Source: a virus. From it: a DNA stretch of 43,859 nt. The position numbers and the translations under genes are program-made. Positions 600 to 43,859 of the stretch are shown piece after piece (position 1 is the stretch's first letter; every line of letters starts with the position of its first letter). The notes under the pieces were generated by a model. That model was not told the origin of the DNA and searched no databases. It was given only the letters and a program-made list of their open reading frames with translations. The DNA lies in the IMG/VR virus record IMGVR_UViG_3300023203_000032, one strand, 5' to 3'.

Positions 600-869
600 T
601 CATCGCTTCGCAAGCCACTCCAGAATCGCTGCAACCTCGTCCGGCGTGAAAATTTGCCACTGATCGGGCCCGACCAATAGAGCCCGATACTCGCAGGCAT
701 CGGCAACCCGCCAGATCGTGCGAGTCTCGGGAATCGGTGGTCCCTCGCGTTCCCATCCGCTGATACAGCGTTGAGTGATCCCGAGCCGCTCGGCAATCTG
801 GACTTGCGTCAGGCCGGCGCGCTTTCGCATCTCGCGGATTGCCGCGGCGGTGGTAAAGGTTTGTCGCAT
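600..869 (-). CDS. XRE-family helix-turn-helix transcriptional regulator (89 aa)
   Basis: HTH motif AGLTQVQIAERLGITQRCISGWEREG. ATG at 869 has GGGAGA about 6 nt upstream; the track ORF begins at a TTG at 890. Confidence 0.8.
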   Translation of the reverse strand: MRQTFTTAAAIREMRKRAGLTQVQIAERLGITQRCISGWEREGPPIPETRTIWRVADACEYRALLVGPDQWQIFTPDEVAAILEWLAKR

Positions 870-942
870 CCGTTTCTCCCGCAGAATCAACCCCGCCCCG
901 GCCGCCCCGCGACGAGCCAGGCGACCGGGGGAGGTTTCGGGC

Positions 943-1376: not shown

Positions 1377-1404
1377 ATTATACACTTCGACCCCTACTAG
1401 TCAA
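1377..1404 (-). promoter_or_regulatory. Sigma70-type promoter candidate TTGACT-16 nt-TATAAT
   Basis: Minus strand reads TTGACT agtaggggtcgaagtg TATAAT inside an AT-rich island, about 55 nt upstream of the ATG at 1320. The predicted leader carries (GAGAGT)x3. Confidence 0.55.
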
Positions 1405-1613
1405 TACTTCTACTTGAATTTTCCGGGAATTTTTCTCAACCGGGGGGGGTGCCACCATTTTGCCGGCCTCAGCAAAAGCCCCCCGGCCGGGGTACGTGGC
1501 CGAGAATGGGCCTAGCTTCGCGTCTGGCGGGCTGTTCTGCCGGACGGCCAGAAAACCACGGCCTAGGGCGCGCATCGCAGCCACGGGGCGGCCAGGCGAC
1601 AGCACAACCGTTG

Positions 1614-1667
1614 CAACCGCTACAGGTGGCTCACGCCCGTCCACTGCGCACCTGGAACCACCATACC
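1614..1667. repeat. Degenerate internal copy of the att / tRNA-His 3' region
   Basis: caaccgctacagg-tgg ... gcacctggaaccaccatacc aligns with att caaccgctacagggtgg ... gcacctggatccacaatcc. There is an exact 13-mer plus a 9-mer at comparable spacing, but the central T-arm part has diverged. Confidence 0.5.
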
Positions 1668-1832
1668 GGGGGGTTGACCCGGCGGATGGCGGCTGCCGAT
1701 GATGAGAGACATGAGACTCGGTCGCGGAGCACGGATGCACCTGGCCGCTATTGGGGTCATGGCGGTCTACTTCCTTGGCCGCTGGGCGTGGGGTCTGCTG
1801 GAGAGTCTTCTCTGACCACCGGAAGCGTTCCG

Positions 1833-2042
1833 ATGCGATACCTGCTTGCCATTGTTTGTCCGCCGCTGGCGGTGCTCCTCTGCGGGAAGTTCTTTCAAGC
1901 GCTCATCAGCGTGCCGCTGACCTTGTGCTTCCTTCTGCCCGGCGTGATCCACGCGGTTTGCGTTGTCTCGTCTACGGAGAGTGAACGTCGGCACCGGGAA
2001 CTTTGCGCAACCGTGGCGGCTTCTGGTCGTGGACAAGTGTGA
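1833..2042 (+). CDS. YqaE/Pmp3-like small membrane proteolipid (69 aa)
   Basis: MRYLLAIVCPPLAVLL...LLPGVIHAVCVV matches the remembered UPF0057/Pmp3 pattern (LPPLxV ... PGxIHAxxV). ATG at 1833 within track ORF 1449..2042. Confidence 0.7.
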   Translation: MRYLLAIVCPPLAVLLCGKFFQALISVPLTLCFLLPGVIHAVCVVSSTESERRHRELCATVAASGRGQV

Positions 2043-2056
2043 TGGGAGGGCCGACG

Positions 2057-2323
2057 ATGAGGCGACGTGGATTCACGCTAACCGAATTGCTCATTGTTGT
2101 GGCCATTATCGGAATGCTGGCGGGCATGGCCTATCCAGTCATCTACAAAGCTCGGCAGAAAGCGTACATCGACGATACGAAACGCCTCGTCACGAAGCTG
2201 CACTACATCGTGCTTCGCAGATACGACGAGTTGCGACACCAACGTCTGCCGATGTCCATGCCGCAAGTCTACACGGCAGCCGGCATCCGGGGGGGGTTGT
2301 CCGGCTCGCGGCGGGTCGTGTAA
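2057..2323 (+). CDS. Prepilin-type N-terminal cleavage/methylation motif protein, short (88 aa)
   Basis: MRRRGFTLTELLIVVAIIGMLAGMAYP is a class III signal peptide (G/FTLxE plus a hydrophobic helix). GGGAGGG lies 7 nt upstream of the ATG at 2057. The ORF contains a G8 tract at 2289-2296. Confidence 0.75.
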   Translation: MRRRGFTLTELLIVVAIIGMLAGMAYPVIYKARQKAYIDDTKRLVTKLHYIVLRRYDELRHQRLPMSMPQVYTAAGIRGGLSGSRRVV

Positions 2324-2551
2324 AGTAGGATCGCACGATGTAGCAGGGCCCGGCGCTCTCACGTCCTCGCGTCAGGTCCTGCGCCTTTTCCAAATCTCGG
2401 CTGCCCGAAGGCAGATCACCATCAGTTGTGCCGTACTCCCGACATATCGCAAGGATGAGCGTCGTTGCGGCGGTAGTGACGGGGTTCTATCTAATGGCAC
2501 GCGCGGTGTGGATGGCAATCTCCGGAGTCGGCGAGTAGCGGGGGGCGATGG

Positions 2552-2959
2552 ATGAGCAGAGCAGACGATTCCTCTCCGGGCGCGTTTGACTTACAGGGGC
2601 CAGCGCAGAGTAGCGTGCGCCAGGCTGACTGTGACACCGAGGCGCGCGAGGGAATATCGCCGGGCAACCTTGTCGCGTGGATCATCATCATCGCCGGCGG
2701 AGCAATTGCCACGATCTTCGTGGCCGTCGGTCTTCTGTACGGATGGTCACGCGCAGTGGATGTCGTCACTTCGGTTGGGATGATATTCTTCGGCGTGCTG
2801 ATCTACTTTGCTCCGCGGATCAATGCGGGGCTGCGGGATCATCCAAACAAGGTAGCTATCGGCGTGTTGAATATCGCCTTGGGCTGGACGCTCTTGGGCT
2901 GGGTCGTCGCACTCGTGTGGTCATCAATGGCCATTCGCCGCGACGTGGAATACCGATAG
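2552..2959 (+). CDS. Superinfection immunity (T4 Imm-family domain) membrane protein (135 aa)
   Basis: C-terminal IYFAPRINAGLRDHPNKVAIGVLNIALGWTLLGWVVALVWS matches the remembered Imm_superinfect signature (HxNKxAIxxLNxxLGWTxxGWxxALxW). Two or more TM segments. Confidence 0.75.
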   Translation: MSRADDSSPGAFDLQGPAQSSVRQADCDTEAREGISPGNLVAWIIIIAGGAIATIFVAVGLLYGWSRAVDVVTSVGMIFFGVLIYFAPRINAGLRDHPNKVAIGVLNIALGWTLLGWVVALVWSSMAIRRDVEYR

Positions 2960-2969
2960 GGGCGGAAGG

Positions 2970-3518
2970 ATGAAGCGACGCGGCATCGCTCGGCGCACAA
3001 TCCTGATTGTCGGGCTAGTCTTGTTGCCGATCATCATTGCGAGTGTTGTGCTCGTGGGGACTGGATACGACCACGATGCGGCCGCTGAAGCACCAGTTCG
3101 TGAGACTGGTGCTACGCCTCCACGCAGCCCAGAAGAAGTCGCGTTCATCGAGAAGCTAGACGCATTTCTCGACTACTGTGACGGCACTGCACGATTGGCT
3201 GAAGAGCACCACGATATCACAGGCCGAGTTCAACAGACGGTTGATTTGTACGCTGCCATTCCCGAACCTGTGAACAACAAGGAGTGGACGCTGCACGCCC
3301 TCACAGCAGCCAAGGAGCTCAAGGAATACGTGTTTAGTGAAGCCGCAAGGGCGGAGAGAATCTCGCGGGATTTGGTTGACCTGTCTCGGCAACTCCACGC
3401 CGACAAGAAGGCGGTTTGGATTGCGGAAGATCAGCTCCGGCCTGAGTGGATAACGCTGAGAGCCACGACGATTGTGATGGCATCACAGGGAGAGGGTGGC
3501 CCTCCCATGACATCGTAA
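2970..3518 (+). CDS. N-terminally membrane-anchored hypothetical protein (182 aa)
   Basis: ATG with GGAAGG upstream. N-terminal TM RRTILIVGLVLLPIIIASVVLV followed by a soluble helical domain. Confidence 0.65.
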   Translation: MKRRGIARRTILIVGLVLLPIIIASVVLVGTGYDHDAAAEAPVRETGATPPRSPEEVAFIEKLDAFLDYCDGTARLAEEHHDITGRVQQTVDLYAAIPEPVNNKEWTLHALTAAKELKEYVFSEAARAERISRDLVDLSRQLHADKKAVWIAEDQLRPEWITLRATTIVMASQGEGGPPMTS

Positions 3519-3701
3519 TCATTTGAAGAGCTAAAAAGAGATGTTCTAGCAGATCAGGTGCTGGACTACGATAACTGTCAAAAACGAATGGTAGCAACAC
3601 GCGAGTCGCTAGAGTCGGCTGTGGCATTTGAACAGACTTGTAGGAAACTTGCTGTCGCACAAATCCGACATCGGATAAAGAAGATACGTTCGCTGAATGC
3701 T

Positions 3702-4241
3702 TCACTTTAGTTTCGCCCACTTCCCCTCAGGGCACTCTTCCGTCCGCATCTTAGCCTTGTTGCGGATTGCCAGCCCTTTGCACGAGACGCGGCAGCCGCA
3801 CTTGCCGCAGGCTTGCTTCTGGTGGTCGTAGTGATCGCACGATTCGCACGTGGCCACGCAGGCGGCGACCTCCTCAGCGGTGCGCCTCGGCCAGCCGGCC
3901 TTCGCCCAGCGGAGTAGAGCCGCCGCGTAGTGCTTCGCCTTCTCCAGGAGCGATGGGTCGCCTGTTTCCTCGGCCAGTCGGGCCGCCGCCTCCTGGACCT
4001 CGGCCGCCTTGGCGGCTTGAACCTCTTCGCGGACGGCCTCGTTCTCCGCTCGCCGGGTTTCGTCTTGCGTTCGCAGGCGAGCTCGCAGAGCGACCCGGCA
4101 TTCCGCTGCCGGCGGCTCGAACTCGGGACGCAAGTCGAGGGTCCGCCGACAGCCCGGGTTGCGGCACCGCCAGCGTATCTTGCCATCGTTTGTGCCGTCC
4201 TGCCCCCACTGGCACAGCAATGCCGGCTTTTGGTCTGTCAT
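3702..4241 (-). CDS. Cys-rich hypothetical protein with C-terminal zinc-binding-like cluster (179 aa)
   Basis: ATG overlaps the stop of the upstream gene (TAATG), with GAGGAGGAG upstream. C-terminal CESCDHY..CGKCGC..C..ECPEGKW cluster. Last gene of the long minus-strand late operon. Confidence 0.7.
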   Translation of the reverse strand: MTDQKPALLCQWGQDGTNDGKIRWRCRNPGCRRTLDLRPEFEPPAAECRVALRARLRTQDETRRAENEAVREEVQAAKAAEVQEAAARLAEETGDPSLLEKAKHYAAALLRWAKAGWPRRTAEEVAACVATCESCDHYDHQKQACGKCGCRVSCKGLAIRNKAKMRTEECPEGKWAKLK

Positions 4242-6355
4242 TACTCCTCCTCGTCTTCACAGGCCGGAATCACCACGGAGAAGTCAACCGGGTTGTGGTC
4301 GGCGTCCTCGTCTACGGGGATCGACACGTCGTCGCTGCAATCCAGTGGCCAGGCCAGCCGGGATTCGGGCTTGGTCGAGAACACTTGCGTGGCCTCGCCC
4401 TCGCACTCAAGCGTAATCTTCGCGCCGACCGTGAACGCTCCACCGCCGGTCGGCCGAAAGATCAGGATGCGGGCCGACAACGCTTCCGCAATGCACTCGT
4501 CGCATCCGGCCGGGTCGCCCTGGTCATAGACACCGGACCACCACACGTCATCCGTGCCGACCACGTCGGTCTCGACTCCAGCACAACTGGCCCGCTCCCG
4601 AACGATGAGTGCGGCACAACCCAGCGTTTCCATCCCCAGAATCTCGACCGCGAGCACCTCGCCTCGAATCCCGCCGTCGGGTTCGATGCACTGGTCCGCC
4701 TCGCACAGTTGCACCGTGCGGAACCAGTCGTAGTAAGACGCCGGCGTGTTTTTGCCAATGTGGTACTCGATCTGTTCGGAGAGCGCCTCGTCGGACGGAT
4801 AAATCTCGATATCGACTACTTCCAAGTCGCATAGCTGGATGCACGCTTCGGTAAAGGCCGTTGGTTTGGCTTCCGCGAAGGACCGCCAGATTCCGCAGTC
4901 CATTTCCTCGTCTGGGTCCAGGTCGATGTCGCAATTCGCGTTAATCCCGTCGCCGGTGATCGTCAGGCGGATCGTCGGCGTGCCCTCATCGTCGAGAAAC
5001 TCGACCTTGAAAAGGTATTCTTCAAGGCAGACTTCGCTGACCACTGTCGTCTGGTAGGTGCACAGCCCTTCCTCCAGATCGCGTGGCAGCGTCACCACCA
5101 GCAGTTGGCGGGGCGTACTGCCTTTGAAATTCTGGCAAAAGTAGGTTGGCGGAGCACCGCTGCGGTGTTCGGGCAGCCAGATTGCCAGGTGGATGTAGTC
5201 GCGGGTGGTGTCTTCCTTGCACTCGGGGCACTGCAACGGGTCGCAGAAGACAACCACGGCCAAATCGTCGAGCGTGAATGGGCCGCCCTCGACCACTTCG
5301 TCCAGCGGAATTTTGGCCCCGGTGTCCGTGGCACAGCTCATCGGCCAGGCCACTCGGCTTGCCGCAGCCGTCCGGATCAGGTGGTGGTTACCACCCATCC
5401 AGAAACTCAGCGTCGCCCCAACCTCGAAATCCTGCTGGCCCAGTTCACGGAAGACGATGACCTGAACGTCGATACTGTCGGCCTTTCCGCCGGTACATGT
5501 CAGGCCCGTCGAGGGTTCGTAGACGCCCGACCACCAGAACTCCTCGTTGTTCGGGAGATCGTAGACGTGCTCGATGCCCAGGCATGGGGCCTTTTCGCAG
5601 ACGAGCAACGTCGGCTCGCAACCCAACTCTTCCAGGTGGATCAATTCTACGGCCAGAATCTCGGCCGGCATATCGCAATCGTCCCAACACTCCGTACAGT
5701 TACACAAGAGAAGGTAGTTGATCCGCTCGAACACACACAGGGCCGTTGCACCCCCCGCCGGGCCGTCGGACGGCTGAACGATCATCGACGGGTACTTGCC
5801 ACGAAAGTCTCCGGGATCATGGCTGCAAGGCGTAAGAATGGGGCAGTACTCCAGATCGGTCATAAACTCGATCTGCTGGCCGCAATCTGGATCGACTTCT
5901 TCGTAGTTGTACCAACAGGTTGGATAATATAAATCGCTCTGCGGAATCTCCAGAAGCGTGGACCACGGTGGGTAGCCCAACATGTGGAACTCAGCCGAGA
6001 AGTAGAAAACGTCCATGCAATTCGGCGTGGTGAACTCGCGGGAATAGTGGCACCCCAACCCATACCGCTCATCCTGGTAGAGGTTCAGGATGATCTTCAT
6101 CTCCAGCGCAGCCAGGCATTGGCAGTACACGTTGGGCGCAAAATCCGTCAGGTCGGTGGGCGGACTCAAGACGAGAATGAGGTAGGACTTGGCCGACTCC
6201 TCATCGCACACGTCACACGGCAGCGTGGTGCAGCAACACGCCGGGTCCATGGCGATGTTGAACCCTTCACCATCATAGACAAACAGAATCACCGTCGAGT
6301 CGACAAGAGTGCCGCCCGCGCCAACCATGTAGGTGTTGATGAACTGGATCGCCAC
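4241..6355 (-). CDS. Large acidic, cysteine-rich distal tail protein candidate (704 aa) with internal domain duplication
   Basis: GTG start with a GGCGAGGAG RBS. About 42 Cys by hand count. Residues ~232-354 and ~566-684 are recognisably homologous (…AVE..LE.LGC…WWSGVY…RVAWP..C…). Downstream of the tape measure. Confidence 0.7.
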   Translation of the reverse strand: MAIQFINTYMVGAGGTLVDSTVILFVYDGEGFNIAMDPACCCTTLPCDVCDEESAKSYLILVLSPPTDLTDFAPNVYCQCLAALEMKIILNLYQDERYGLGCHYSREFTTPNCMDVFYFSAEFHMLGYPPWSTLLEIPQSDLYYPTCWYNYEEVDPDCGQQIEFMTDLEYCPILTPCSHDPGDFRGKYPSMIVQPSDGPAGGATALCVFERINYLLLCNCTECWDDCDMPAEILAVELIHLEELGCEPTLLVCEKAPCLGIEHVYDLPNNEEFWWSGVYEPSTGLTCTGGKADSIDVQVIVFRELGQQDFEVGATLSFWMGGNHHLIRTAAASRVAWPMSCATDTGAKIPLDEVVEGGPFTLDDLAVVVFCDPLQCPECKEDTTRDYIHLAIWLPEHRSGAPPTYFCQNFKGSTPRQLLVVTLPRDLEEGLCTYQTTVVSEVCLEEYLFKVEFLDDEGTPTIRLTITGDGINANCDIDLDPDEEMDCGIWRSFAEAKPTAFTEACIQLCDLEVVDIEIYPSDEALSEQIEYHIGKNTPASYYDWFRTVQLCEADQCIEPDGGIRGEVLAVEILGMETLGCAALIVRERASCAGVETDVVGTDDVWWSGVYDQGDPAGCDECIAEALSARILIFRPTGGGAFTVGAKITLECEGEATQVFSTKPESRLAWPLDCSDDVSIPVDEDADHNPVDFSVVIPACEDEEE

Positions 6356-6361
6356 GGCCGG

Positions 6362-7282
6362 TCACTCCTCGCCTTCGCACGTAACGCCCGTGTGGATCGT
6401 CTGGGCGTCCTCCTCCTCCTCCAACTGGAAGGCGAGTGTCTTGGTTTCCTTCACGTCGATATCCACATCGTTGACAGCTACGTCGGTGATCGGGGCCACC
6501 TCGCGGTAGTAGTTCATAATATAGTACTTGCCGCTGACCTCGACCGCCGTGCATTTGTAGCCGGAAGGCAAGACCGAGCCGGCCGGCAAAAGCGACCAGT
6601 CGTAGACAATCGCCCTGCTAGCGTTTTCCAGCGGGTCGTGCCCGAAGACCCACATTTCGGCCGCGCCGCCGGCCATGAGGTTTGTCGTGAGCCGGCCGAT
6701 GACGACGTTGGAGCCAGAGTGGCTGCTGCCGATGTTCACGATTGCCCACGCGATGGTCTCGGCCGTGGCCGAGGGGTCGAGCCAGAGAATCCGGACGCCC
6801 TTGTCGCCGGTGCCCAGCCAGACGGTCTCGCCGCCGCCCGTCTTGTAGTCGATCACGTCGCAGAACTCATCGGTGGTCGCGTTGACGTAGACGCGAACGA
6901 CGGCATGGCCCACCAGGACCGCGCGGGCGAAGCTCTGCCGATAGTCGGGCGCGCTCGAGGAGGCCAACGCCGGGGCAACCAGCGCGGCCCACTTGCCGCA
7001 ATGGTCCGGCTTGACCGGCGTCACGCCCGAGAAGGCCGGCAGGCCGTCGCATCGCACCGGATCGTCCACCGGCAAAAAGAGCGGCTCGTTGAGGCCGACG
7101 ATCTGGAACGCGGCCAGGTCGGACCCCGTGTCATTGCGGATGAGAATTTCAGCCGTGCTACGACGCGACGGCACGCGCCCCCCGTGGCCGGCCATGGACT
7201 CCGCAATCGCGTCGGCCTCCGAGCGCAACACCGCCCGATTGATCCGCGCGGCGGCGTCGTCGTCAATCCAATCGAACGGCAT
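6362..7282 (-). CDS. Hypothetical minor tail/tail tip protein (306 aa)
   Basis: ATG at 7282, 4 nt after the upstream stop. Assigned by position in the tail module; no motif recognised. Confidence 0.6.
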   Translation of the reverse strand: MPFDWIDDDAAARINRAVLRSEADAIAESMAGHGGRVPSRRSTAEILIRNDTGSDLAAFQIVGLNEPLFLPVDDPVRCDGLPAFSGVTPVKPDHCGKWAALVAPALASSSAPDYRQSFARAVLVGHAVVRVYVNATTDEFCDVIDYKTGGGETVWLGTGDKGVRILWLDPSATAETIAWAIVNIGSSHSGSNVVIGRLTTNLMAGGAAEMWVFGHDPLENASRAIVYDWSLLPAGSVLPSGYKCTAVEVSGKYYIMNYYREVAPITDVAVNDVDIDVKETKTLAFQLEEEEDAQTIHTGVTCEGEE

Positions 7283-7286
7283 GGCT

Positions 7287-8234
7287 TCACACAACCCACG
7301 GCGGAACGAGGTTCAACGGGGCGAACGACGCCTTGTTGACGCGGCGAAACTTGCAGAAGTAGACCGGAAACACGAGTGCGCCAGTGGTCGGGTTGCGTGG
7401 AACCAGCGATCCATCGGGCTTGAGCGGCTGCGGCTGGCCGTCGGTGACGCCCAGGTCGACGTGGGGGACCGGGACCTTCTTGCCATTGATCGTCACCAGC
7501 GACTTCGGCCCGGCGTTCAGGACGTAGTGGGGATCCCAGCCGCCTTTGCAGATCTGCTGGCCCTCCGTGTCGAGCGCCAATTCCACCGGGACGAGGATCT
7601 TCGGGTTGACCAGGACCGTGAACGTCCGCAAGAACCAGTACGCGCCCCACTCATAAACCTCTTCGGTCGCGATGTTCCGGACGAGCGCCGTGCCCGCCGC
7701 CGCGCCATTCCACGGGTCCGTGTTCGTCGCGTTCAGGTAGCCGCGGTCTGCGGTCCGGTTGAGCGTCGATTCGTAGCGCGTGATCGTCACCTCATCGACG
7801 AAAATGGGCAGGTCCGGCGGGGGCGCGAACTGGATGCCCGCCGTGTCGGCAAACAGCTTGCCGTCGAGGTCGTGGAACCACGATTGCGGGATCTCGATGA
7901 AGTTGAAACGCCATCTGGGGCGGCGCTGGTCCGGGGCCTTCTGGTCCTCTTGCGGGGCCCACTTCCCTCGCGTGACCGTGTTCCACTCCGCTCGCACGTC
8001 CCAGAAGTAGGGGTCGTCCCTGTTTCGCCGCGCGTCCACGTCGACGCAGATTGCGGCGGGATTCTCCGGGTGCGGACTGCCATAGATGGGCAGGAGCCCG
8101 CAGGCCAGAATGATCGCCCTCGATTCCGTCGGCGTGTCTGACTTGACGGTGTACTCGGTGAAGAACGTCTGCGAGCCGGCCTCATGCGAGCCCGCTCCGG
8201 CCGAACACTTCGGTTTGACGTATTCAACCGCCAT
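7287..8234 (-). CDS. Hypothetical minor tail protein (315 aa; distal-tail position)
   Basis: ATG at 8234, immediately after the tape measure stop (8238-8240). Protein-like composition; assigned by position. Confidence 0.6.
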   Translation of the reverse strand: MAVEYVKPKCSAGAGSHEAGSQTFFTEYTVKSDTPTESRAIILACGLLPIYGSPHPENPAAICVDVDARRNRDDPYFWDVRAEWNTVTRGKWAPQEDQKAPDQRRPRWRFNFIEIPQSWFHDLDGKLFADTAGIQFAPPPDLPIFVDEVTITRYESTLNRTADRGYLNATNTDPWNGAAAGTALVRNIATEEVYEWGAYWFLRTFTVLVNPKILVPVELALDTEGQQICKGGWDPHYVLNAGPKSLVTINGKKVPVPHVDLGVTDGQPQPLKPDGSLVPRNPTTGALVFPVYFCKFRRVNKASFAPLNLVPPWVV

Positions 8235-19792: not shown

Positions 19793-20560
19793 TCAGCAAC
19801 CGGGGATGGGCACGGACACTTTCGTGTTGAGGATGTTCCGGCCCGTGCTGTGCCGTCGGCCTTTGGTTCCGCCGGGGCGGATCATGCCGCGTCCCCACTT
19901 GGCAATGAGCCGCCGGATACAGACCCGCTCGGTCTCTGCCGTCCTCAGCGAGACGAAGCCGCCCGATCGCTTGCCGTGGTCGTGGACGTAGTGGTACTTG
20001 TTCACCCGGAGGGTCTTGTGGTACCGCTGGATGTTCTGCAACCAGAAGTCGTAGTCCTCCTTGGCTGGCACGGACTCGTCGTAGCGCAGCTCGGGCGACA
20101 GATGCCCCGTGAACGGTCCAAGGATCGGGGCCAGCAGATTGAACGGGCAGAACGCCTTGTACGAGGTCGGGTCGGAGTTCTGAGCGATGCCCCAGAGCCG
20201 CACGCCCAACTGCTCGGCCAACTCGAAGTGGTGCACGATCATCGAGGCAATCTGCTCCGGGGTGAGCCAATGCCGCCGCCCTCCCTCGAACATGCCGATT
20301 CGCGGGATGTCGTCGTCGAGGACGAGCGTCCACGCCTTGGGTGAACGGTCCAAGATCGCGTTGAACTTGCGGCTCGGGTTGCCGTCGCATTCGTCAGGGA
20401 TGGTGATTACCCGATCCCCATAGTGCTGGCGGTAGTCGTCGCCTTGGGACTCGGGCACCCAGACGTACGCGAACGGGAACGGGCCGAACGCATCGACCCG
20501 ACCCGCGCGCCGGTACGAACGGATGGCCACGTGAATTCGGTCGTCAATCGTCGCACTCAT
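19793..20560 (-). CDS. GT-A-fold glycosyltransferase-like protein (255 aa)
   Basis: ATG at 20560 with a GGGAG RBS. N-terminal strand IHVAIRSYRR, DxD-type LVLDDDI, later EDYDFW. The pattern is reminiscent of phage GT-A / TET-associated glycosyltransferase-like proteins (memory only). Confidence 0.55.
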   Translation of the reverse strand: MSATIDDRIHVAIRSYRRAGRVDAFGPFPFAYVWVPESQGDDYRQHYGDRVITIPDECDGNPSRKFNAILDRSPKAWTLVLDDDIPRIGMFEGGRRHWLTPEQIASMIVHHFELAEQLGVRLWGIAQNSDPTSYKAFCPFNLLAPILGPFTGHLSPELRYDESVPAKEDYDFWLQNIQRYHKTLRVNKYHYVHDHGKRSGGFVSLRTAETERVCIRRLIAKWGRGMIRPGGTKGRRHSTGRNILNTKVSVPIPGC

Positions 20561-23646: not shown

Positions 23647-23910
23647 CTACCGCTCGCAGTTCCGTTCATGCCGTGCCATGGTTGCTGCACAGCTCATCCG
23701 CAAGGTGTTCAACGCTTCGCTGTTTGATTGAATCGCCTGCGTGATTGCAATGCGGTCCTCACGTTGGTTCTTGTGCTGAATCCAGAACAACGCGGCTAGG
23801 AAGGCGAGCGCGCCGCCCTGCACCACGCCGCCGACTTCGGGCCATACCGGCTCGATTGCTTGCCCGCAGAGAAACGCACTGAGACTCGCGGCGAACATCC
23901 CGTTTTGCAT
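23647..23910 (-). CDS. Small membrane protein, holin-like candidate (87 aa)
   Basis: GGTGAGGG RBS. Two hydrophobic segments (FAASLSAFLCGQAI; GGALAFLAALFWI) followed by a polar tail. Confidence 0.5.
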   Translation of the reverse strand: MQNGMFAASLSAFLCGQAIEPVWPEVGGVVQGGALAFLAALFWIQHKNQREDRIAITQAIQSNSEALNTLRMSCAATMARHERNCER

Positions 23911-23962
23911 CCCTCACCCACCCTCGACCGAATCCATGGTTGGCCCCTTGCGTGACTCCGAC

Positions 23963-24772
23963 TTAGAGTTGCGTTAGCGTTGCCCCAAAACCGTACAGCT
24001 CGTCCGGCACGGCACGCGAACCTTCAAGCTCGATTACGTCGTCCTCGTTGTGGCTATTGCGGAGCTTCCATCGCAGATTGTTCGTAGCCGATTCGTCCCA
24101 TTCCACGGCCACCAGCTCCAGGGCATGGCCCCACCAGTTGTACGCGATGTAGCACGGCGTCCCCGTCGCCAGAATCGAGATTGCGTGCTGAATCATCGCC
24201 TTTCGCGTGCTGTTGTCGGCGTCGAAGACCTCGCCTTCAGCCAACCGGTATTGCAGAGCGTTCTCTTCCCAGCCCTTTTCGTACTGCCGATGACTGCGGC
24301 TGTGCTGGTCCGGCGTGTACTTCATTTCGCAAACGCCGCGTTCCATGAGCCCGCGAATACAGTCCTCCAGGTAATTGCCCTGATTCCGCCAGTCGACAAG
24401 CCAGCCAAGACTTACTGGCGAGAGAATCGGGACGGGCTTACCCTCGCGTGCCCGGCAGTCCATCAGCGTTCCCGTGCCGCTCCAGGCCCAACAGTAGCCG
24501 AGGCCATTCTGATTCCACCGGAATCCAGGCGGGCCCCAGCTTGCACGCTGGTGATAGAGCGGGAAGCGTTGCTCGGCGTGGCAACGAAGAATCACTTCCT
24601 TGTAGTCGGCGGGCTTCACGAGCATGTCAGGATATTCGCCGACGGCCACCACGCCCGGGATGCGGCCGTAGCCCGTTCGCCGCGGCACAACGCCGTAGCC
24701 GCCGTGCGACTGGCAACCGTGGACGAGGTATTCAAAATCGGCGACGTTGTCGAGGTCGTAGCGTTGGATCAT
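23963..24772 (-). CDS. Papain-like (C1-type) cysteine peptidase (269 aa)
   Basis: WNQNGLGYCWAWSGTGTL matches the papain Q..G.CWAFS catalytic Cys motif. A later WWGHALELV provides a His candidate, and RNSH an Asn region. ATGA coupling to the upstream gene. Confidence 0.65.
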   Translation of the reverse strand: MIQRYDLDNVADFEYLVHGCQSHGGYGVVPRRTGYGRIPGVVAVGEYPDMLVKPADYKEVILRCHAEQRFPLYHQRASWGPPGFRWNQNGLGYCWAWSGTGTLMDCRAREGKPVPILSPVSLGWLVDWRNQGNYLEDCIRGLMERGVCEMKYTPDQHSRSHRQYEKGWEENALQYRLAEGEVFDADNSTRKAMIQHAISILATGTPCYIAYNWWGHALELVAVEWDESATNNLRWKLRNSHNEDDVIELEGSRAVPDELYGFGATLTQL

Positions 24773-25395
24773 CGCTTGGCCCCCTTTGCACCAGCAAGGA
24801 ACTCCAGTACAGCCGCGGCGTTCTCGGGCAAGGCCGCATCCCGCACGTTACCGCCGTCGAGCGGTGCGAACGCGATACGCGGGGTGCTCTTGCCCTTGAC
24901 GGCCCGGAAGTAGGCCGAGAGGTCAGGGCTCGTCGGCTTGTGCCCCGGTTCAGCGACCGCGTTGATGTCGAAAGAGCCGACGAAGTAGTGGCCCGCGTCG
25001 GTCAACGCCTTGCGGAATTTCAAGCCCTGCAAAACGTCGAGCTGCTCCTGACTGTAGTTGTCCAAGTCGAGCGATTGGTAAAAGAAGGCGACTTGCCACT
25101 TTGCGTTTGGCGTAGGGTCCGGGTCCGGGTCCGGATCGGGCCCAGGATCGGGGTCCGGTCCCGGGTCCGGCTGCACAAAGGGCACCAGCTTGAACGACCG
25201 GAAGTCGGTCAGTAGCAAGACCACCGTGCCAGGCTCGGTCCCCGGGACGAACATCGCCTGAATCGTACCGCCGTCGGCCCCGGGCATCTTGAACGGCTTG
25301 AACACGGCCACGTCCGGCTCGGCAGCACAGGCGACCGCGGCGGCCAACGACAGCAAGACCACAATCGCGGCCTCGCGGAAGACGGCACGTTTCAT
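24769..25395 (-). CDS. Secreted two-domain protein with (Pro-Asp)n linker (208 aa)
   Basis: Signal peptide MKRAVFREAAIVVLLSLAAAVACAA. Central QPDPGPDPDPGPDPDPDPDPTP linker. ATGA coupling on both sides. Confidence 0.7.
   Translation of the reverse strand: MKRAVFREAAIVVLLSLAAAVACAAEPDVAVFKPFKMPGADGGTIQAMFVPGTEPGTVVLLLTDFRSFKLVPFVQPDPGPDPDPGPDPDPDPDPTPNAKWQVAFFYQSLDLDNYSQEQLDVLQGLKFRKALTDAGHYFVGSFDINAVAEPGHKPTSPDLSAYFRAVKGKSTPRIAFAPLDGGNVRDAALPENAAAVLEFLAGAKGAKR
25115..25170. repeat. GGTCCG/GGATCG-type short tandem repeat encoding the PD linker
   Basis: gggtccgggtccgggtccggatcgggcccaggatcggggtccggtcccgggtccgg read directly. Confidence 0.8.
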
Positions 25396-25661
25396 GCTGT
25401 TACCCTCCTAAAACAGAAGATCGCAATGACCGCCGCCAACAGACCCGCCGTCAGAATGGCAAGCATGCCGGCCAGCCGACGCCAGAACCGCACGCCGTCG
25501 GTAACGCGGTATTCGATCCACAGATTCGTCGCCACATCATTGAACGTCTTGGACCGGCACGTCGGCGACGATTCACCGCAGCGGGCAAACTCGTGCCGGG
25601 CATCCGTCGGTTCGGGTTCTAAACTCGACGGACGGGGCGACCGGCGTGCAGGCTGGCTCAT
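25392..25661 (-). CDS. C-terminally TM-anchored small protein (89 aa)
   Basis: ATG at 25661 with an AGAGGAG RBS. C-terminal TM LAGMLAILTAGLLAAVIAIFCF. The stop overlaps the next ATG (ATGA). Confidence 0.55.
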   Translation of the reverse strand: MSQPARRSPRPSSLEPEPTDARHEFARCGESSPTCRSKTFNDVATNLWIEYRVTDGVRFWRRLAGMLAILTAGLLAAVIAIFCFRRVTA

Positions 25662-25839
25662 CGCAGGCACTCCTCTGGGCTCGACGGACCTTGACGCGAT
25701 GAACGACGCGGACCACCTTCACCACTTTAGCCGCGGCTCGCACGGCCTTGCGGACCGGACCACGGCAGCTACAGGCATTGGCCTCGCAGGCAAACGCGAG
25801 CGCCAGAAGGATGGTGGCAGCAAGAGCGAAACGTCGCAT
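25573..25839 (-). CDS. Small secreted/basic protein with N-terminal signal peptide (88 aa)
   Basis: ATG at 25839 with an AAGGAGA RBS. MRRFALAATILLALAFACEANA signal-like segment. The 3' end overlaps the next gene by ~89 nt in another frame, so the true end is uncertain. Confidence 0.5.
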   Translation of the reverse strand: MRRFALAATILLALAFACEANACSCRGPVRKAVRAAAKVVKVVRVVHRVKVRRAQRSACDEPACTPVAPSVEFRTRTDGCPARVCPLR

Positions 25840-25884
25840 GGGGTTCTCCTTGGGTTGGGGCAACTTGTAAGCGATGCTACAAGT

Positions 25885-26349
25885 TCACTTCCGGAACAGG
25901 TCGATGATCGCCTTGATCGCCATGATGATAGCGATGATGGTGTTCACGTCCCACTTGACCTCATCGCCAGCCGGTTGCGAGACAATCCGCGTGGTGATGT
26001 CCGGGCCAATCGGGTCGGCGGCATCAGGCCGCAGGTAGTCATAAATCAGGTCCCACAAGAAGTCGCTCTCGGCCACCTGGGCAATCATGGCGGCAAGCCC
26101 ATCGTCAATTGTCGTGTCCGTTTCCTCAGCCAGCGATTCGAGCGTGCCAGCCAATCGACGCACCCACGCTCGCGTCGCGTCCTTGTCGCTCAGGTCCGGC
26201 AGCGGAAGCAACTGGGCCAGCTCGCTGATATACTTCAGCAAAACCGTGAAGTCGATTTGCAGCGACGCGGCCAAAGCGACGAGCTTCCGCAACAGCTCCA
26301 AAATTCGCCCGCCGAACAAGGCCTCGGGCTGCGGGTCTACGCTTGACAT
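25885..26349 (-). CDS. Hypothetical protein (154 aa)
   Basis: Strong AGGAGGA RBS. Helical, acidic sequence with a hydrophobic C-terminal segment NTIIAIIMAIKAII. Confidence 0.65.
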   Translation of the reverse strand: MSSVDPQPEALFGGRILELLRKLVALAASLQIDFTVLLKYISELAQLLPLPDLSDKDATRAWVRRLAGTLESLAEETDTTIDDGLAAMIAQVAESDFLWDLIYDYLRPDAADPIGPDITTRIVSQPAGDEVKWDVNTIIAIIMAIKAIIDLFRK

Positions 26350-26364
26350 CGTGAATCCTCCTGT

Positions 26365-27459
26365 TTACTTGCATGCGGGAATCAGGTACTTTTCGACGAA
26401 CTTTTCGTGCGGCGATTCGCTGCCGTTCTTTCGCGTGTCTGCCGTCATTACGAACACCACGTTCTTGTCCGGGATCACATAGACCATTTGCGAGCCCCAG
26501 CCCCATGCCTGCCAGACTTTGCACCGGCTCATCGTGTCGGACCACCAGAACAGGCCGTAGCCGCTCTTGTGCGACGTGAAGCACGCATCGACGGCCCAGT
26601 CCGGGATGACTTGCTGCCCCTTCTGATTCTTGCCGTGGTTCAGGAAGAGCAATCCGAACGCGGCCATTTCTCGCGGGGTCAGGTACGTGTTGAATCCGCC
26701 GCAAGAGATTCCCTCGGGGTCCTTGCCCCAATGCTCTGTCTCGGCACCCAGCGGGGCGAGAATCTTAGCGTTCACAAACTTTTCGGTGCTCATCCCCGTG
26801 ACCGCTTGCAGCACGGCCGAGACGAGGTGGCTGTTTCCGGTGCTGTAGTTGAACACCTCGCCCGGCTTGACCGTGGTGGTCGAGCGTCGGCCGCCGTTGG
26901 TCGCCATGCCCTGGTCGAGGATTTGCTGGACCCAGTTCGTCTTCCGCTCGATTGTGTACTCCGTGGAATCCTCCGACCAGCGAAGCCCTGACGTGTGCGT
27001 CAACAGGTGCTCCAGCGTGATCGTGTTCCGCACGTCTGAAGCGGCGTACTTTGCGAAATACTTCGGGATGAGCTTGCTCACCGGCGTCTGCAAACTCGGG
27101 ATCAGGCCGCTGTCCACCGCGATGCAGCCCGCCGCCGAGAGCATCGACTTGCTCTTGCTGTGGACGTTGGCCGCCGTCGCTTTTGTTGCTCCGTGGTAAT
27201 AGGACTCGTGGATCAGGACGTTGTTCCGGATGAGCACGATCGAGAAGATGTCCTTGTCGGCCGCGAGCATCTTGACGCCGGCGGCCAGCTTGGTCGCGTC
27301 CACCTTCTGGCTGGCCGGCGTCCCTGTCACCCACGGCCCCGTGCCGTCGCTCGGGTCGCTGTAGAGCGGGCAGTCGTCGTACCAGGACGCGGCCAGGCAC
27401 GGACCAGAGAACGCCGCCAGGGCGGCCAGGAGGGCCGCTAGAAGGGCAATCCATCGCAT
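26365..27459 (-). CDS. Secreted serine hydrolase of the beta-lactamase/PBP fold (364 aa)
   Basis: Signal peptide MRWIALLAALLAALAAFSGPCLAAS. SxxK (HSKSKS). FNYSTGNSHLVSAVLQAVTGMSTEKFVNAKILAPLGAETEHW resembles the PF00144-type YxN region. AGGAG RBS at the ATG at 27459. Confidence 0.75.
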   Translation of the reverse strand: MRWIALLAALLAALAAFSGPCLAASWYDDCPLYSDPSDGTGPWVTGTPASQKVDATKLAAGVKMLAADKDIFSIVLIRNNVLIHESYYHGATKATAANVHSKSKSMLSAAGCIAVDSGLIPSLQTPVSKLIPKYFAKYAASDVRNTITLEHLLTHTSGLRWSEDSTEYTIERKTNWVQQILDQGMATNGGRRSTTTVKPGEVFNYSTGNSHLVSAVLQAVTGMSTEKFVNAKILAPLGAETEHWGKDPEGISCGGFNTYLTPREMAAFGLLFLNHGKNQKGQQVIPDWAVDACFTSHKSGYGLFWWSDTMSRCKVWQAWGWGSQMVYVIPDKNVVFVMTADTRKNGSESPHEKFVEKYLIPACK

Positions 27460-28518: not shown

Positions 28519-28750
28519 ACCGCCGGGCCAATTCCTCCGGCATCGGCATGTCCGGCGTCGACCGCACGTCGATGAGCTTCTCGCCAGGCTCGGGTGACGC
28601 GATGCCCTGTAGCAACTCGTCGAGTTCCCATTCCATCATGCCCGAGCAGTAGAGTAGCACCTTACGCTCGGCGTCATGCTCGACGAGGTAGACCAGCTCG
28701 CCGAGCAAGTCATCGTCATAGAGCTGCGTCAGGCGGTGGGGGATTTTCAT
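28385..28750 (-). CDS. Hypothetical protein (121 aa)
   Basis: ATGA coupling with the methyltransferase stop. Acidic N-terminal domain MKIPHRLTQLYDDDLLGELVYLVEHD. Confidence 0.6.
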   Translation of the reverse strand: MKIPHRLTQLYDDDLLGELVYLVEHDAERKVLLYCSGMMEWELDELLQGIASPEPGEKLIDVRSTPDMPMPEELARRCEEATARARAKRKAESAANRPGQGNPRRLRYAERRGRIGARRYK

Positions 28751-29610
28751 TCGAATAGCATCCTTTCCGGTCTCGCAAGACTCGGGCCGTTTATCAAAAG
28801 AACTTCGGGGGCCTTGACCAAGCCGCCGCCCTTCTTGTGACTGCCGAGGCTCTTGACTGCCACGAGCGGCCGTTTCGTCCAGCGCCCGGGCGCGTACATC
28901 GTGTCGAGGTCCGGATGGTCGTAGTAGCTCACAAGTACCCGGGCGCGAGTGAATCGTGCGAGCTGCTCGGCAAGTCGCGGGTGATCCTCGCCAGCAAAAT
29001 CATACAGGTACGTCGCGCCCTTCTCGATATAGGGCGGGTCGCAATAGATCACCGTCCCGGGCGCATCCTCGATTCGCGGCAATAGGTCGAAGACATTCCG
29101 CTCCAGAATCGTGACGGTCCGCAGCCGACGCCGCCAGGCAGGAATCGAGTCGATTGCGTTGCACCATCGCATTGCGGAATGCCCGCCGTTGTTTGTGTAG
29201 CGAACGGAAAACGTCTGGCCCACTTCTCGCGTGCCGATCACGCCGGACCGTCCCATCCAGCCGAACACAAAATACTGGTATGCCCGGTCCAGGTCCGGCT
29301 CAGAGCCCCTCCAGTATGGATCGTCTTGGATCGTGCCGGCCGCCTCGGCGAACGTCCGCTCGTCGAAGAATGTGCGTCGCAATCGGCGATAGAGCGCCGG
29401 GCCAAGGAGTTCGTCCCGCACCACGCGGGCAAGGTTTATCACGTCGCCGTAAAGGTCGTTCACCGTTTCCGTCCGACACGCTGGCTTGTTCAGCGTAACG
29501 GCTAATGTGAAGGCGAACAAGTCCCACCAACAGTTGTGCGGACCGACCTCGGCAAGAATCTGCCCAACCAACTTCCGCTTCGCTCCGAACCCGGGCACAA
29601 TCGCGCGCAT
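28747..29610 (-). CDS. Dam-type (D12 class) N6-adenine DNA methyltransferase (287 aa)
   Basis: DPPY motif (VIYCDPPYI). N-terminal FGAKRKL...VNDLYGDVINLARVVRD is typical of the D12 class. ATG at 29610; the upstream 45 track codons are Arg/Gly junk. Confidence 0.8.
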   Translation of the reverse strand: MRAIVPGFGAKRKLVGQILAEVGPHNCWWDLFAFTLAVTLNKPACRTETVNDLYGDVINLARVVRDELLGPALYRRLRRTFFDERTFAEAAGTIQDDPYWRGSEPDLDRAYQYFVFGWMGRSGVIGTREVGQTFSVRYTNNGGHSAMRWCNAIDSIPAWRRRLRTVTILERNVFDLLPRIEDAPGTVIYCDPPYIEKGATYLYDFAGEDHPRLAEQLARFTRARVLVSYYDHPDLDTMYAPGRWTKRPLVAVKSLGSHKKGGGLVKAPEVLLINGPSLARPERMLFE

Positions 29611-29621
29611 CTTCGCCTCGT

Positions 29622-29831
29622 TCACGTCGCGTCCCTCCGCCTGCCCTTCCACGGCTCGATTCCATACGGCCACTCCACCTCGCCCTCGGCCAGCTCGCGC
29701 TTGGTCCATCGGCCGATGCGGATGCCGCAGACAACACATTCCCAAACGGACGTGCCGTCGTAGTGGGCGGGCTCATCACGGGCGTACTCGACGCCCATCA
29801 TCGGCTGCCCGCAGTGGGGTGGTATGCTCAC
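29622..29831 (-). CDS. Small zinc-ribbon-like protein (69 aa)
   Basis: GTG at 29831 preceded by AGGAAAGGA. HCGQP...CVVCG. The upstream part of the track ORF is Arg/Gly-rich. Confidence 0.5.
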   Translation of the reverse strand: MSIPPHCGQPMMGVEYARDEPAHYDGTSVWECVVCGIRIGRWTKRELAEGEVEWPYGIEPWKGRRRDAT

Positions 29832-39721: not shown

Positions 39722-39879
39722 CGCTCATCCTCATAAAGTCCTGTTTGCGGATTGAATCCCTCGATGTTCACTTCCGGCGGCGGAAGCTGGTCGCGGTTGT
39801 TTTCCAGCCAGTCCAACCAGTCCAGCCAGTCCAGCCAGTCCAACCAATCCTCAATCTCGTGCCGCGTTCGTGGGCTCAT
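39703..39879 (-). CDS. Small ORF encoding a (DWL)5 repeat (58 aa)
   Basis: Not in the track. Sequence MSPRTRHEIEDWLDWLDWLDWLDWLENNRDQLPPPEVNIEGF...; the repeat is encoded by the 9-bp tandem array. Confidence 0.4.
   Translation of the reverse strand: MSPRTRHEIEDWLDWLDWLDWLDWLENNRDQLPPPEVNIEGFNPQTGLYEDERCDSSD
39804..39848. repeat. Five tandem 9-bp units ccaRccaRt
   Basis: ccagccagt ccaaccagt ccagccagt ccagccagt ccaaccaat read directly. Confidence 0.85.
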
Positions 39880-43188: not shown

Positions 43189-43411
43189 CGGAGCACCACT
43201 CGGCTGCCCCGCTATTCAAGGGTATCACACTCCCTTGCGGCGCGGGGTAAATCAACATCCGAGCGGTGGACGATTCCACGGCCTGCGCGCTCCGCCTGGT
43301 CGGCCTGTACCGGTTCTACCGGCTGGACCGATCAGGGATTCCTGGTCACTGCACCCAGGGCCCCAGAGAAGGGGGGCGGAGAGTGCTATTGTTTGCAAAA
43401 CGCTGGTGGCG

Positions 43412-43740: not shown

Positions 43741-43810
43741 AGCGGTTGGAGCGGTTTGCACGGCAATAGCGACCGCCCGGGCCTCACGGCTTACGGCCGC
43801 TCCAACCGCT
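43741..43810. repeat. Perfect 14-bp inverted repeat (AGCGGTTGGAGCGG / CCGCTCCAACCGCT) with 42-bp spacer, abutting the att core
   Basis: 43741-43754 is the exact reverse complement of 43797-43810. The last 4 nt lie inside the 53-bp direct repeat. Confidence 0.8.
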
Positions 43811-43859
43811 ACAGGGTGGATGAAGGGACTCGAACCCTCGGCACCTGGATCCACAATCC
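43807..43859. repeat. att direct repeat, right copy (identical to 1-53)
   Basis: Base-by-base identity with 1-53. Confidence 0.9.
43815..43859 (-). tRNA. tRNA-His(GTG), 3' portion only; the 5' part is expected beyond the window end
   Basis: Same sequence as 9-53: anticodon loop TTGTGGA, T arm GAGGG-TTCGAGT-CCCTT, acceptor CATCCAC plus discriminator C, very like E. coli tRNA-His CUGGAUUGUGAUUCCAG...CCACC. The int-proximal copy is normally the intact gene. Confidence 0.6.

Follow-up and report, generated by a model that had tools for sequence, protein, structure and literature searches.

Small envelope proteins encoded on the strand opposite the lytic genes of a temperate tailed phage, probably of Planctomycetota, including a headless prepilin and an Imm-family protein

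Among the closest described counterparts of the gene cluster considered here are phage-encoded proteins that act on pili or at the membrane. D3112 gp05 (Tip) and DMS3 Aqs1 are small cytoplasmic proteins, which bind the pilus assembly ATPase PilB. T4 Imm is a protein of 83 aa and, to our knowledge, is the only member of the Imm family for which a function has been shown. Work on Pmp3/RCI2 proteins has connected them with membrane potential and with tolerance of stress, and not with phages; we know of no tie between Pmp3 proteins and phage exclusion. We also know of almost no cultured phages for Planctomycetota, and of no phage receptor or exclusion mechanism in these bacteria. T4 Imm is described as a block of DNA injection (PMC11436027). 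As to pilus subunits, prophage-borne P-FimU blocks pilus-tip-binding phages (Sztanko et al., Cell Rep 2026, PMC12952977), and truncated, N-terminal-only PilA copies of 60 residues are present in six Pseudomonas phages (PMC12952977). The pilus-subunit component of the cluster, which the original prediction had counted within a combination not previously described, is therefore not new as such, phage pilus subunits in defence, truncated ones included, having already been published.

The window analysed here is a stretch of 43,859 nucleotides of viral DNA (IMG/VR record IMGVR_UViG_3300023203_000032), which encodes a portal, TerL, a major capsid protein, tail proteins, a primase and helicases and is, thus, a phage. 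The phage is tailed and temperate and uses tRNA-His as its integration site. The att core (1-53) is the 3′ part of a tRNA-His gene read on the minus strand, extending from the anticodon loop to 7 nt beyond the acceptor end, and is repeated at the other end of the window (43807-43859). A mere overlap produced by circular assembly was considered for this 53-bp terminal repeat and rejected: in the JGI contig L152, which holds the integrated form, a complete tRNA-His passes into phage DNA precisely at the att core, and it is this exact coincidence with the host-phage boundary that identifies the repeat as the att core. Beside it lies the gene of a divergent tyrosine integrase (42295-43188, minus strand), with weak matches to XerA, XerC and XerD and a faint precomputed match to Pfam Phage_integrase.

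The host is probably a Planctomycetota bacterium, Pirellulales-like, as suggested by the names of homologues and not by the host flank, whose protein on L152 matches no Pfam domain. The tRNA-His is unfit to decide the matter because it is too conserved: tRNA-His genes in many genomes of many phyla contain a 25-mer of the att core, and full-length tRNA-His identity singles out no host taxon. The closest GenBank phage TerL is at most 28% identical, and a search with the tail protein encoded at 7287-8234 retrieved no related prophages from viral or genome collections.

The cluster occupies 1833-3518 on the plus strand and consists, as originally predicted, of four ORFs, here g1 to g4; both peptides quoted with the prediction, RRRGFTLTELLIVVAIIG and HPNKVAIGVLNIALGWTLLGWVVALVW, are found in the encoded proteins. 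JGI gene calls on contigs L001, L151 and L152, which jointly cover the element, uphold the claim that these are the sole plus-strand genes besides 134-493, all other called phage genes being on the minus strand, and g1 itself is left uncalled by the JGI gene caller. The intergenic gaps measure 14 bp (g1-g2), 228 bp (g2-g3) and 10 bp (g3-g4). All four ORFs display the coding-type pattern GC1>GC2<GC3, purine-rich Shine-Dalgarno-like motifs are found upstream of g2, g3 and g4, and the GC content of the cluster is 57-62% versus approximately 62-68% in most of the remaining phage DNA. Hydropathy (transmembrane, TM, threshold of 1.6) gives two TM segments for g1, one for g2, three for g3 and one, N-terminal, for g4. 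Two further small plus-strand ORFs may belong to the cluster, namely g0 (1699-1815), an uncertain candidate for a 38-aa hydrophobic peptide (GC1/2/3 of 0.66/0.47/0.71) with a hydrophobic stretch below the same TM threshold, and gs (2428-2538), an equally uncertain 36-aa single-TM candidate inside the g2-g3 gap, with coding-type GC and one hydrophobic segment. They are weakly similar to each other (the observed score is reached in 10 of 2000 shuffles), and no homologues were found for either of them.

On one side of the cluster, a gene for an HTH_3/XRE-type regulator and candidate prophage repressor (600-890, minus strand; 41.6 bits to Pfam HTH_3, with matches to PHROG transcriptional repressor/regulator families) forms, with 943-1320, a leftward operon that is divergent from the cluster. 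In a consensus scan, the 512-bp divergent control region between the two (1321-1832) contains a strong sigma70-like promoter on the minus strand (1404-1377, 11/12 matches) and a weak match only on the plus strand (1674-1703); the scan found no convincing plus-strand promoter or terminator for the cluster, and no Rfam family matches the cluster or its leader. On the other side, the end of the late operon (3702-6355, minus strand) is convergent on the cluster and encodes a tail-fibre-like protein of 704 aa (4241-6355, minus strand, from the ORF list) and a Cys-rich protein of 179 aa (3702-4241, minus strand, phrog_13558). At 1.8-3.5 kb from attR, the cluster therefore has the tail-fibre end of the late operon on one flank and the HTH gene on the other, which is a typical accessory-gene ('moron') position, of the kind expressed from the prophage, in agreement with the original prediction. 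Since the cluster and the lytic genes occupy opposite strands and the cluster diverges from the operon of the HTH regulator, its expression in the lysogen is most likely.

The second protein, g2 (2057-2323, plus strand; 88 aa), had been described as pilin-like on account of its N terminus. That part of the description stands: g2 scores 36.9 bits with N_methyl PF07963 (cut-off 21.2, E 2e-9) and 36.6 bits with TIGR02532 (cut-off 16.3), weakly matches phrog_3433 'pilin', and begins with a class III signal peptide, MRRRG/FTLTELLIVVAIIGMLAGMAYP (MRRRG/FTLTE), in which a short basic leader ending in Gly at -1 is followed by Phe at +1 and Glu at +5, with a hydrophobic stretch of approximately 20 residues. 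What does not stand is the notion of a complete pilin. In the AF2 model, predicted from the g2 sequence alone, a single alpha1 helix (residues 8-61, pLDDT of approximately 95) leads into a low-confidence, disordered tail of approximately 27 residues, and the globular alpha-beta head domain is absent. Equivalog models (PilA, GspG, GspH, ComG and others) all stay below their cut-offs and match at most the first 50 or so residues of g2, and the best PDB sequence matches are short Geobacter pilins (9egp, 7tgg and 2m7g; E 2.5e-7 to 6e-5). A word-indexed homologue search returned, for g2 as well as for g4, the query itself only, and a cluster look-up supplied no names.

The affiliation of g2 emerges from the comparison with a family of Planctomycete pseudopilins, whose 320-position HMM gives g2 69.8 bits at positions 21-91, other viral prepilins reaching at most 50.5 bits. 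Residues 27-88 alone match 60 of 120 family members, so that the similarity goes beyond the generic N_methyl motif. As modelled, g2 is the class III signal peptide and alpha1 of this family of approximately 320 aa, and not a complete pilin or pseudopilin. Members of the family carry Pirellulales or Thermoguttaceae names, and their genes adjoin those of two MshEN+T2SSE ATPases, a shorter T2SSE ATPase, a T2SSF platform protein and further N_methyl proteins, in operons that also encode a protein of 1661-1991 aa; judged by this gene content, the Pirellulales operons are those of a type IV pilus-like machine. Full-length family members also occur on two other viral contigs (L003 and L004), as opposite-strand islands, one of which is likewise convergent on a Cys-rich gene and a fibre-like gene. 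As a separate observation, a Cys-rich gene of L004, beside the prepilin gene of that contig, is weakly similar to 3702-4241 and has the same position.

The third protein, g3 (2552-2959, plus strand), is an inner-membrane protein of 135 aa, for which three TM helices are predicted, and its assignment to the Imm family is confirmed by Imm_superinfect PF14373 (54.4 bits against a cut-off of 27.9, E 1e-14, profile positions 1-41 of 42) and, concordantly, by phrog_1039 'immunity to superinfection' (64.4 bits, E 2e-17). The Imm_superinfect domain is C-terminal (residues 84-124), with the TM segments of the hairpin at 68-86 and 101-126, and is preceded by an N-terminal extension of 67-70 or so residues that holds a further TM helix. 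By tblastn, relatives of g3 are found in 859 GenBank phage records, T4-like phages included, many of them annotated as superinfection immunity; these phage relatives lack the N-terminal extension and match only residues 68-135 or so of g3. As for the first protein, g1 (1833-2042, plus strand; 69 aa), it is a Pmp3/YqaE-family proteolipid, as predicted, on the basis of Pmp3 PF01679 (42.7 bits against a cut-off of 22.9, E 5e-11, profile positions 3-48 of 49) and phrog_38199 (E 6e-16), its hydrophobic segments at 3-21 and 27-45 giving two TM helices and its size fitting the approximately 50-70 aa of the family. Relatives with 57-61% identity are present on four viral contigs, in three of the four directly downstream of a serine recombinase, and nine GenBank phage records hold relatives, Paenibacillus temperate phages included. 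Searches for the three Pfam families that had been proposed (Pmp3, N_methyl and Imm_superinfect) thus all gave matches above the curated cut-offs, while PADLOC-DB 2.0 defence models matched none of g1-g4 at E <= 0.01.

The fourth protein, g4 (2970-3518, plus strand), is indeed TM-anchored and 182 aa long, with one N-terminal TM segment followed by a predicted helical bundle on the periplasmic side. The family of g4 is unnamed and rare: Pfam, PHROGs, NCBIfam and PADLOC do not contain it, and a set of 1.84 billion representative proteins yielded only seven homologues, the majority of which bear a lipoprotein signal. Two further metagenome loci, both short, were identified; no relatives were found on viral contigs, at least one g4 relative is on a mobile element, and for two g4 relatives another small membrane protein comes next. 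The AF2 model has a pLDDT of 74 overall and above 90 in the core, and a Foldseek search with it against PDB and BFVD yielded generic helical-bundle noise (best E 0.15, none below 0.1). With g4, this rare lipoprotein family is now placed in a mobile-element context.

How these parts relate to one another is best approached through their distribution. The original prediction saw in them a single multi-layer entry-blocking module, i.e. one co-adapted system combining a pilus block, an injection block and a change of membrane potential. The tight spacing within the g1-g2 and g3-g4 pairs, the common strand, the envelope nature of all four products and the small membrane protein that comes next in two g4 relatives would agree with it. 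Against this, co-occurrence across related loci, the check proposed for the module, gave no second cluster member within 5-6 kb of 80 Imm-like, 4 Pmp3-like and 80 prepilin-like viral loci (0 of approximately 160), and no other cluster member is found beside those g4 relatives whose flanks, on short contigs, were examined; furthermore, the taxonomic spreads differ (859 phage records for g3, nine for g1, seven proteins in total for g4) and the block is split by the 228-bp gap. Each cluster gene has its own distribution and the four are not a conserved system, so that the module is very unlikely. The reading that we favour, to which we give roughly even credence, is that a temperate phage acquired these accessory genes independently of one another and that their products most likely act separately on the envelope. 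The cluster genes probably help the lysogen to resist other phages. Alternatively, they could serve lysogenic conversion without phage exclusion, Pmp3 providing tolerance to membrane or ion stress and the headless pseudopilin tuning adhesion or motility. The arguments from position and strand hold equally here, the Pmp3/RCI2 family is generally known for membrane potential and stress tolerance rather than for phages, and the target machine of g2 would be a pilus-like operon of the host; yet Imm_superinfect is named for T4 Imm, known to exclude superinfecting phage, and the sole phage-borne pilus subunits characterized by experiment serve in defence against phages, which makes this explanation rather unlikely.

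That g2 could instead be a non-functional remnant has also to be weighed. Relatives of g2, of phages as well as of cells, are far longer (277-502 aa, and 323-425 aa in another count), the similarity of g2 to them ends at residue 72 or so, the 228-bp gap lies behind g2, and the JGI gene caller skips g1: g2 might, then, be the stump of a full-length phage pseudopilin, cut by the insertion of g3-g4, in an at least partly neutral cluster of decaying cargo. Yet the missing C-terminal part of approximately 230 residues has left no frameshifted remnant in any frame of 1400-3700, so that g2 is not a recent pseudogene; its start, GGGAGGG ribosome-binding motif, GC3 of 0.74 and complete cleavage motif with Glu5 are all intact, and N-terminal-only PilA copies recur in the six Pseudomonas phages. 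Because all copies seen in metagenomes are identical, selection on the short form is not measurable; on the evidence listed, decay is quite unlikely. A lysis cassette was also considered, with the small TM proteins as holin or antiholin and g4 as an i-spanin-like protein. The type II anchor and helical periplasmic domain of g4 are as expected of an i-spanin, and g3 has a very weak match to a holin PHROG (E 0.11). This reading was rejected, and we regard it as extremely improbable, because the late genes lie on the other strand, because the cluster contains no endolysin and has no o-spanin lipoprotein ORF (lipobox) embedded in or following g4, and because a better candidate is found at 23647-27459 on the lytic strand, where a secreted enzyme of beta-lactamase fold is encoded together with TM and signal-peptide proteins; moreover, neither Pmp3 nor Imm proteins are known to serve as holins.

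In the favoured reading of separately acting accessory genes, four, possibly six, small envelope proteins would be made in the lysogen. Processed by the prepilin peptidase, g2 would enter the pilus-like machine of the host through its alpha1 helix and would then either sit in a filament devoid of the phage-binding surface or poison assembly, in both cases with the receptor for incoming phages being removed or changed. The hairpin of g3, of the T4 Imm type, would, by analogy with its family, hinder the passage of genomes through the inner membrane. The more specific proposal, that the headless pseudopilin, reduced to the cleavage site and assembly helix of a minor-pilin-like protein, serves the pilus-like machine as a 'bald' or dominant-negative subunit, paired with an Imm-type injection blocker in a temperate Planctomycete phage, is tentative and, as it stands, unlikely. 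If true, the full-length copies by the tail-fibre genes of related phages would point to an arms race between phages over a pilus receptor. Should g2 act as proposed, pilus-subunit mimicry would extend from Pseudomonas and Xylella to Planctomycetota, with a natural form reduced to the N-terminal helix in a temperate phage, and the poorly studied Pirellulales pilus-like operon would be pointed to as a likely phage receptor. Apart from the points concerning g2 and g4, the cluster consists of routine prophage accessory genes, every part being of a known kind.

Compared with described systems, g1 resembles the Pmp3/YqaE proteins of Paenibacillus larvae temperate phages, also small two-TM accessory proteolipids, often encoded near an integrase, but differs from them by a charged C-terminal tail of 20 residues. 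With T4 Imm, g3 shares a phage-encoded, conserved membrane hairpin, at a score approximately twice the Pfam cut-off, but it is a longer protein, of 135 aa, owing to an extra N-terminal cytoplasmic stretch and TM helix; also, imm is an early gene of a virulent phage, while the g3 gene occupies an accessory position in a prophage. Geobacter PilA-N ('Geopilin domain 1') has the alpha1-only architecture of g2, in 61-90 residues, but the match is limited to the N-terminal 37 residues or so, and PilA-N is chromosomal and paired with a separate PilA-C, no such partner being seen here. The phenotype expected of g2 is that of D3112 gp05/Tip and DMS3 Aqs1, i.e. a lysogen that resists pilus-dependent phages; unlike these cytoplasmic proteins, g2 is itself a pilin-like membrane substrate, and the mechanism would be filament mimicry or poisoning. 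Closest are P-FimU and P-PilA, like g2 phage-borne homologues of a type IV filament subunit. Their defence function was shown by experiment, whereas g2 is known here from its sequence; their hosts are Pseudomonas and Xylella, whereas that of g2 is probably of Planctomycetota, as deduced indirectly, and the pilin family differs. P-FimU is encoded between tail tube and chaperone genes, g2 in an opposite-strand accessory cluster by the tail-fibre end, and the truncated PilA copies of that publication belong to virulent phages, unlike the temperate one that carries g2. In these copies, as in g2, only the N-terminal assembly helix is kept (approximately 60 residues), while P-FimU is paralleled by the full-length relatives on L003 and L004, and the proposed outcome is the same, namely that the pilus receptor for other phages would be lost or changed.

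The window carries portal, large terminase, major capsid, neck and tail protein genes, together with replication and modification genes (primase-polymerase, helicases and a DNA methyltransferase), and represents a tailed phage. Its first 53 bases recur at its end (1-53 = 43807-43859) and correspond to the 3' part of a tRNA-His, a segment spanning the anticodon loop through to 7 nt beyond the acceptor end, with no encoded CCA. The phage is temperate and integrates at tRNA-His, with the repeat as att core, since on a metagenome contig with host flank (L152) a complete tRNA-His (2388-2469) passes directly into phage DNA exactly at the repeat, and is followed by an HTH gene and then a divergent tyrosine integrase. 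Another contig of the element, L001, is 99.99% identical to the window over 12.3 kb. The rest, positions 1-773, lies to the left of the att core, at the place that would precede window base 1, and differs from the opposite end of the window: it carries another 80-aa HTH gene and shares with window 43124-43393 a 272-bp stretch at 97.8% identity. This arrangement may reflect a prophage in tandem, or the remnant of one, at this tRNA, or else a variant whose immunity region has been exchanged.

The four ORFs under study (g1-g4, window 1833-3518, plus strand) lie 1.8-3.5 kb from attR in the prophage. In the JGI gene calls of three contigs jointly spanning the element, all phage genes besides these four and 134-493 are on the minus strand, as the original prediction had it. 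Convergent on the cluster are the last of the late genes, namely that of a 704-aa fibre-like protein (4241-6355, -) and, at the late-gene end, that of a Cys-rich protein with CxxC motifs (3702-4241, -; phrog_13558); on the other side lies a leftward operon with an XRE-type HTH regulator (600-890, -). The GC content of the cluster is 57-62%, against about 62-68% for most of the phage. Position, strand and GC fit accessory genes that were separately acquired and whose reading does not depend on the lytic programme. Promoter evidence for the cluster is weak: in the 512 bp upstream, the only strong sigma70-like site faces the HTH operon, away from the cluster. The only other plus-strand gene, 134-493, separates the att core from the HTH operon and gives weak PADLOC matches to the candidate defence protein PDC-M32A (E 5e-5, partial). 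By eye, a segment of about 130 residues appears to be duplicated within the translated fibre-like protein; the two copies, which start LAVELIHLEELGCEP and LAVEILGMETLGCAA, are both Cys-rich and without family match.

Pfam profile searches bear out the family assignments first made by inspection: g1 (1833-2042, 69 aa) is a Pmp3-like proteolipid (PF01679, 42.7 bits against a cut-off of 22.9), g2 (2057-2323, 88 aa) has a prepilin N terminus (PF07963 N_methyl, 36.9 against 21.2), and g3 (2552-2959, 135 aa) belongs to Imm_superinfect (PF14373, 54.4 against 27.9). PHROGs are concordant for g1 (phrog_38199) and g3 (phrog_1039, 'immunity to superinfection'), with weak matches for g2 ('pilin' phrog_3433 and others), while g4 (2970-3518, 182 aa) has zero matches in Pfam, PHROGs, NCBIfam and PADLOC. 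By hydropathy, g1, g2, g3 and g4 have 2, 1, 3 and 1 TM segments, respectively. GC by codon position is of the coding type in all four, and purine-rich ribosome-binding motifs stand ahead of g2, g3 and g4. Two unannotated hydrophobic plus-strand ORFs of 36-38 aa, 1699-1815 and 2428-2538, also have a coding-type GC pattern, the latter with a clear TM-like segment and the former with a weaker stretch; their mutual likeness is weak (the observed score was reached in 10 of 2000 shuffles), and their status as genes is uncertain. One of them precedes each gene pair.

The N terminus of g2 is a canonical class III signal peptide (MRRRG|FTLTE, Glu at +5), and the AlphaFold model is a single helix (residues 8-61, pLDDT about 95) followed by a disordered tail; a head domain is absent. 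Its best sequence matches among solved structures are short Geobacter pilins of 61-90 residues, and the NCBIfam equivalogs (PilA, GspG, GspH, ComG and others) all fall far short of their cut-offs. Residues 1-67 are 42-45% identical to two far longer prepilin-like proteins encoded on viral contigs, one of 425 aa on L003 and one of 323 aa on L004, each in an opposite-strand island among phage genes. A family HMM built from 120 members of the L004-like family, a Planctomycete pseudopilin family, matches g2 with 69.8 bits at model positions 21-91 of 320; without its N_methyl part g2 still matches 60 of the 120 members, and the other prepilin-like proteins on viral contigs reach at most 50.5 bits, over the generic N terminus only. 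Since g2 matches the HMM in this way and model positions 92-320 leave zero trace in any frame of window 1400-3700, it is a clean N-terminal-only derivative of the family, not freshly frameshifted. On L004 the prepilin gene converges on a Cys-rich gene (6010-6438, -), weakly similar to window 3702-4241 (C-terminal motif, E 3e-5), and then on a 686-aa fibre-like gene; the Cys-rich gene thus sits between fibre-like and prepilin genes, matching the position of 3702-4241 at the late-operon end. In both L003 and L004 a small TM ORF directly follows the prepilin gene.

Homologues of the L004 protein number at least 1540 and are 277-502 aa long; NCBI records label them type II secretion or GspH-family proteins of Pirellulales and Thermoguttaceae MAGs, and the contigs that carry them are chromosomal and reach 1 Mb. 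The neighbours of the family member are constant in two independent genomic settings: two MshEN+T2SSE ATPases, a shorter T2SSE ATPase and, directly upstream of the pilin-like genes, a T2SSF platform gene; the family member is flanked by further N_methyl proteins and then by a protein of 1661-1991 aa. Judging from operon content, these would be minor-pilin-like subunits and the large tip protein of a pilus-like machine. The operon, conserved in Pirellulales (L233, L234 and L235), includes several prepilin-like proteins of 313-407 aa. It seems to encode a type IV pilus-like machine that is so far uncharacterised and whose subunits are unusually large.

The four genes have quite different distributions. 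Relatives of g1, 57-61% identical, occur on four viral contigs, in three directly downstream of a serine recombinase, and Paenibacillus temperate phages carry more distant ones. What g3 has in common with other phage proteins is only its C-terminal hairpin (about residues 68-135), matched by 859 GenBank phage records, many annotated as superinfection immunity, T4-like phages included; by hydropathy, its N-terminal ~67 residues add an extra cytoplasmic stretch and a third TM helix. Homologues of g4 number only seven among 1.84 billion representative proteins, most starting with a lipoprotein signal; g4 is modelled as a TM helix with a helical bundle, for which a fold search returned no informative match. 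An 8.6-kb contig (L145) carries a g4-family lipoprotein with integrase and excisionase-like (HTH_17) genes, a HigB toxin gene adjoining an HTH gene, and its repeated ends suggest a ~7-kb circular element. Another g4 relative has on one side a putative toxin-antitoxin pair, recognised by eye, and on the other ordinary metabolic genes. In two independent contexts (L145/L231; L148) what follows the g4 relative is a small protein with two TM segments and a zinc ribbon.

The original prediction of one integrated entry-blocking system is quite improbable: within 5-6 kb, a second cluster member was found near none of 80 Imm-like, 4 Pmp3-like and 80 prepilin-like viral loci, nor near the g4 relatives with examinable flanks, mostly on short contigs. 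As no co-occurrence was found outside it, the combination is, as far as the data go, unique to this phage. This, with the differing distributions, argues against a co-evolved module and favours a build-up of independent accessory genes, which may have come in as two pairs, g1-g2 and g3-g4, with a 228-bp gap between them.

On position, strand and the two informative families, there is about an even chance that the cluster encodes envelope proteins which, expressed from the prophage, would reduce superinfection. Conversion functions unrelated to phages have a small share of the likelihood, and partly decayed cargo is unlikely. A lysis cassette is very improbable, the cluster being on the wrong strand for it and without a lysin, and a better candidate exists elsewhere. 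This probable lysis module (23647-27459, -) comprises a beta-lactamase-fold, DD-peptidase-like protein with signal peptide (26365-27459, -; PF00144, 92.8 bits; phrog_382, 'tail protein with lysin activity'), which as an endolysin would be of an unusual type, followed by four small proteins that carry TM or signal segments. Also in the window, a glycosyltransferase-like gene adjoining the terminase (19793-20560, -; phrog_842 beta-glucosyl-HMC-alpha-glucosyltransferase, E 2e-15; Pfam TAGT weak) and a Dam-type methyltransferase (28747-29673) suggest possible DNA modification, and a short run of CCAGTC/CCAGCC-type hexamer repeats (39800-39850) lies in or beside a small minus-strand gene.

The superinfection-reducing reading has precedents for both informative families. 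Prophage-encoded FimU copies join the Pseudomonas pilus and block tip-binding phages, and other phages carry PilA-like genes, including a family of N-terminal 60-residue copies, for which incorporation without a phage-binding surface, or assembly inhibition, was suggested (PMC12952977); these are a direct precedent for g2, as T4 Imm (PMC11436027) is for g3. Every recognisable part of the cluster is a known kind of phage accessory gene, and the pilin-mimic idea, truncated forms included, is already published. What is new is the phylum, probably Planctomycetota for this host from the names of family members, the specific pseudopilin family with its operon, and the fact that different phages carry, at comparable positions, both full-length and headless copies.
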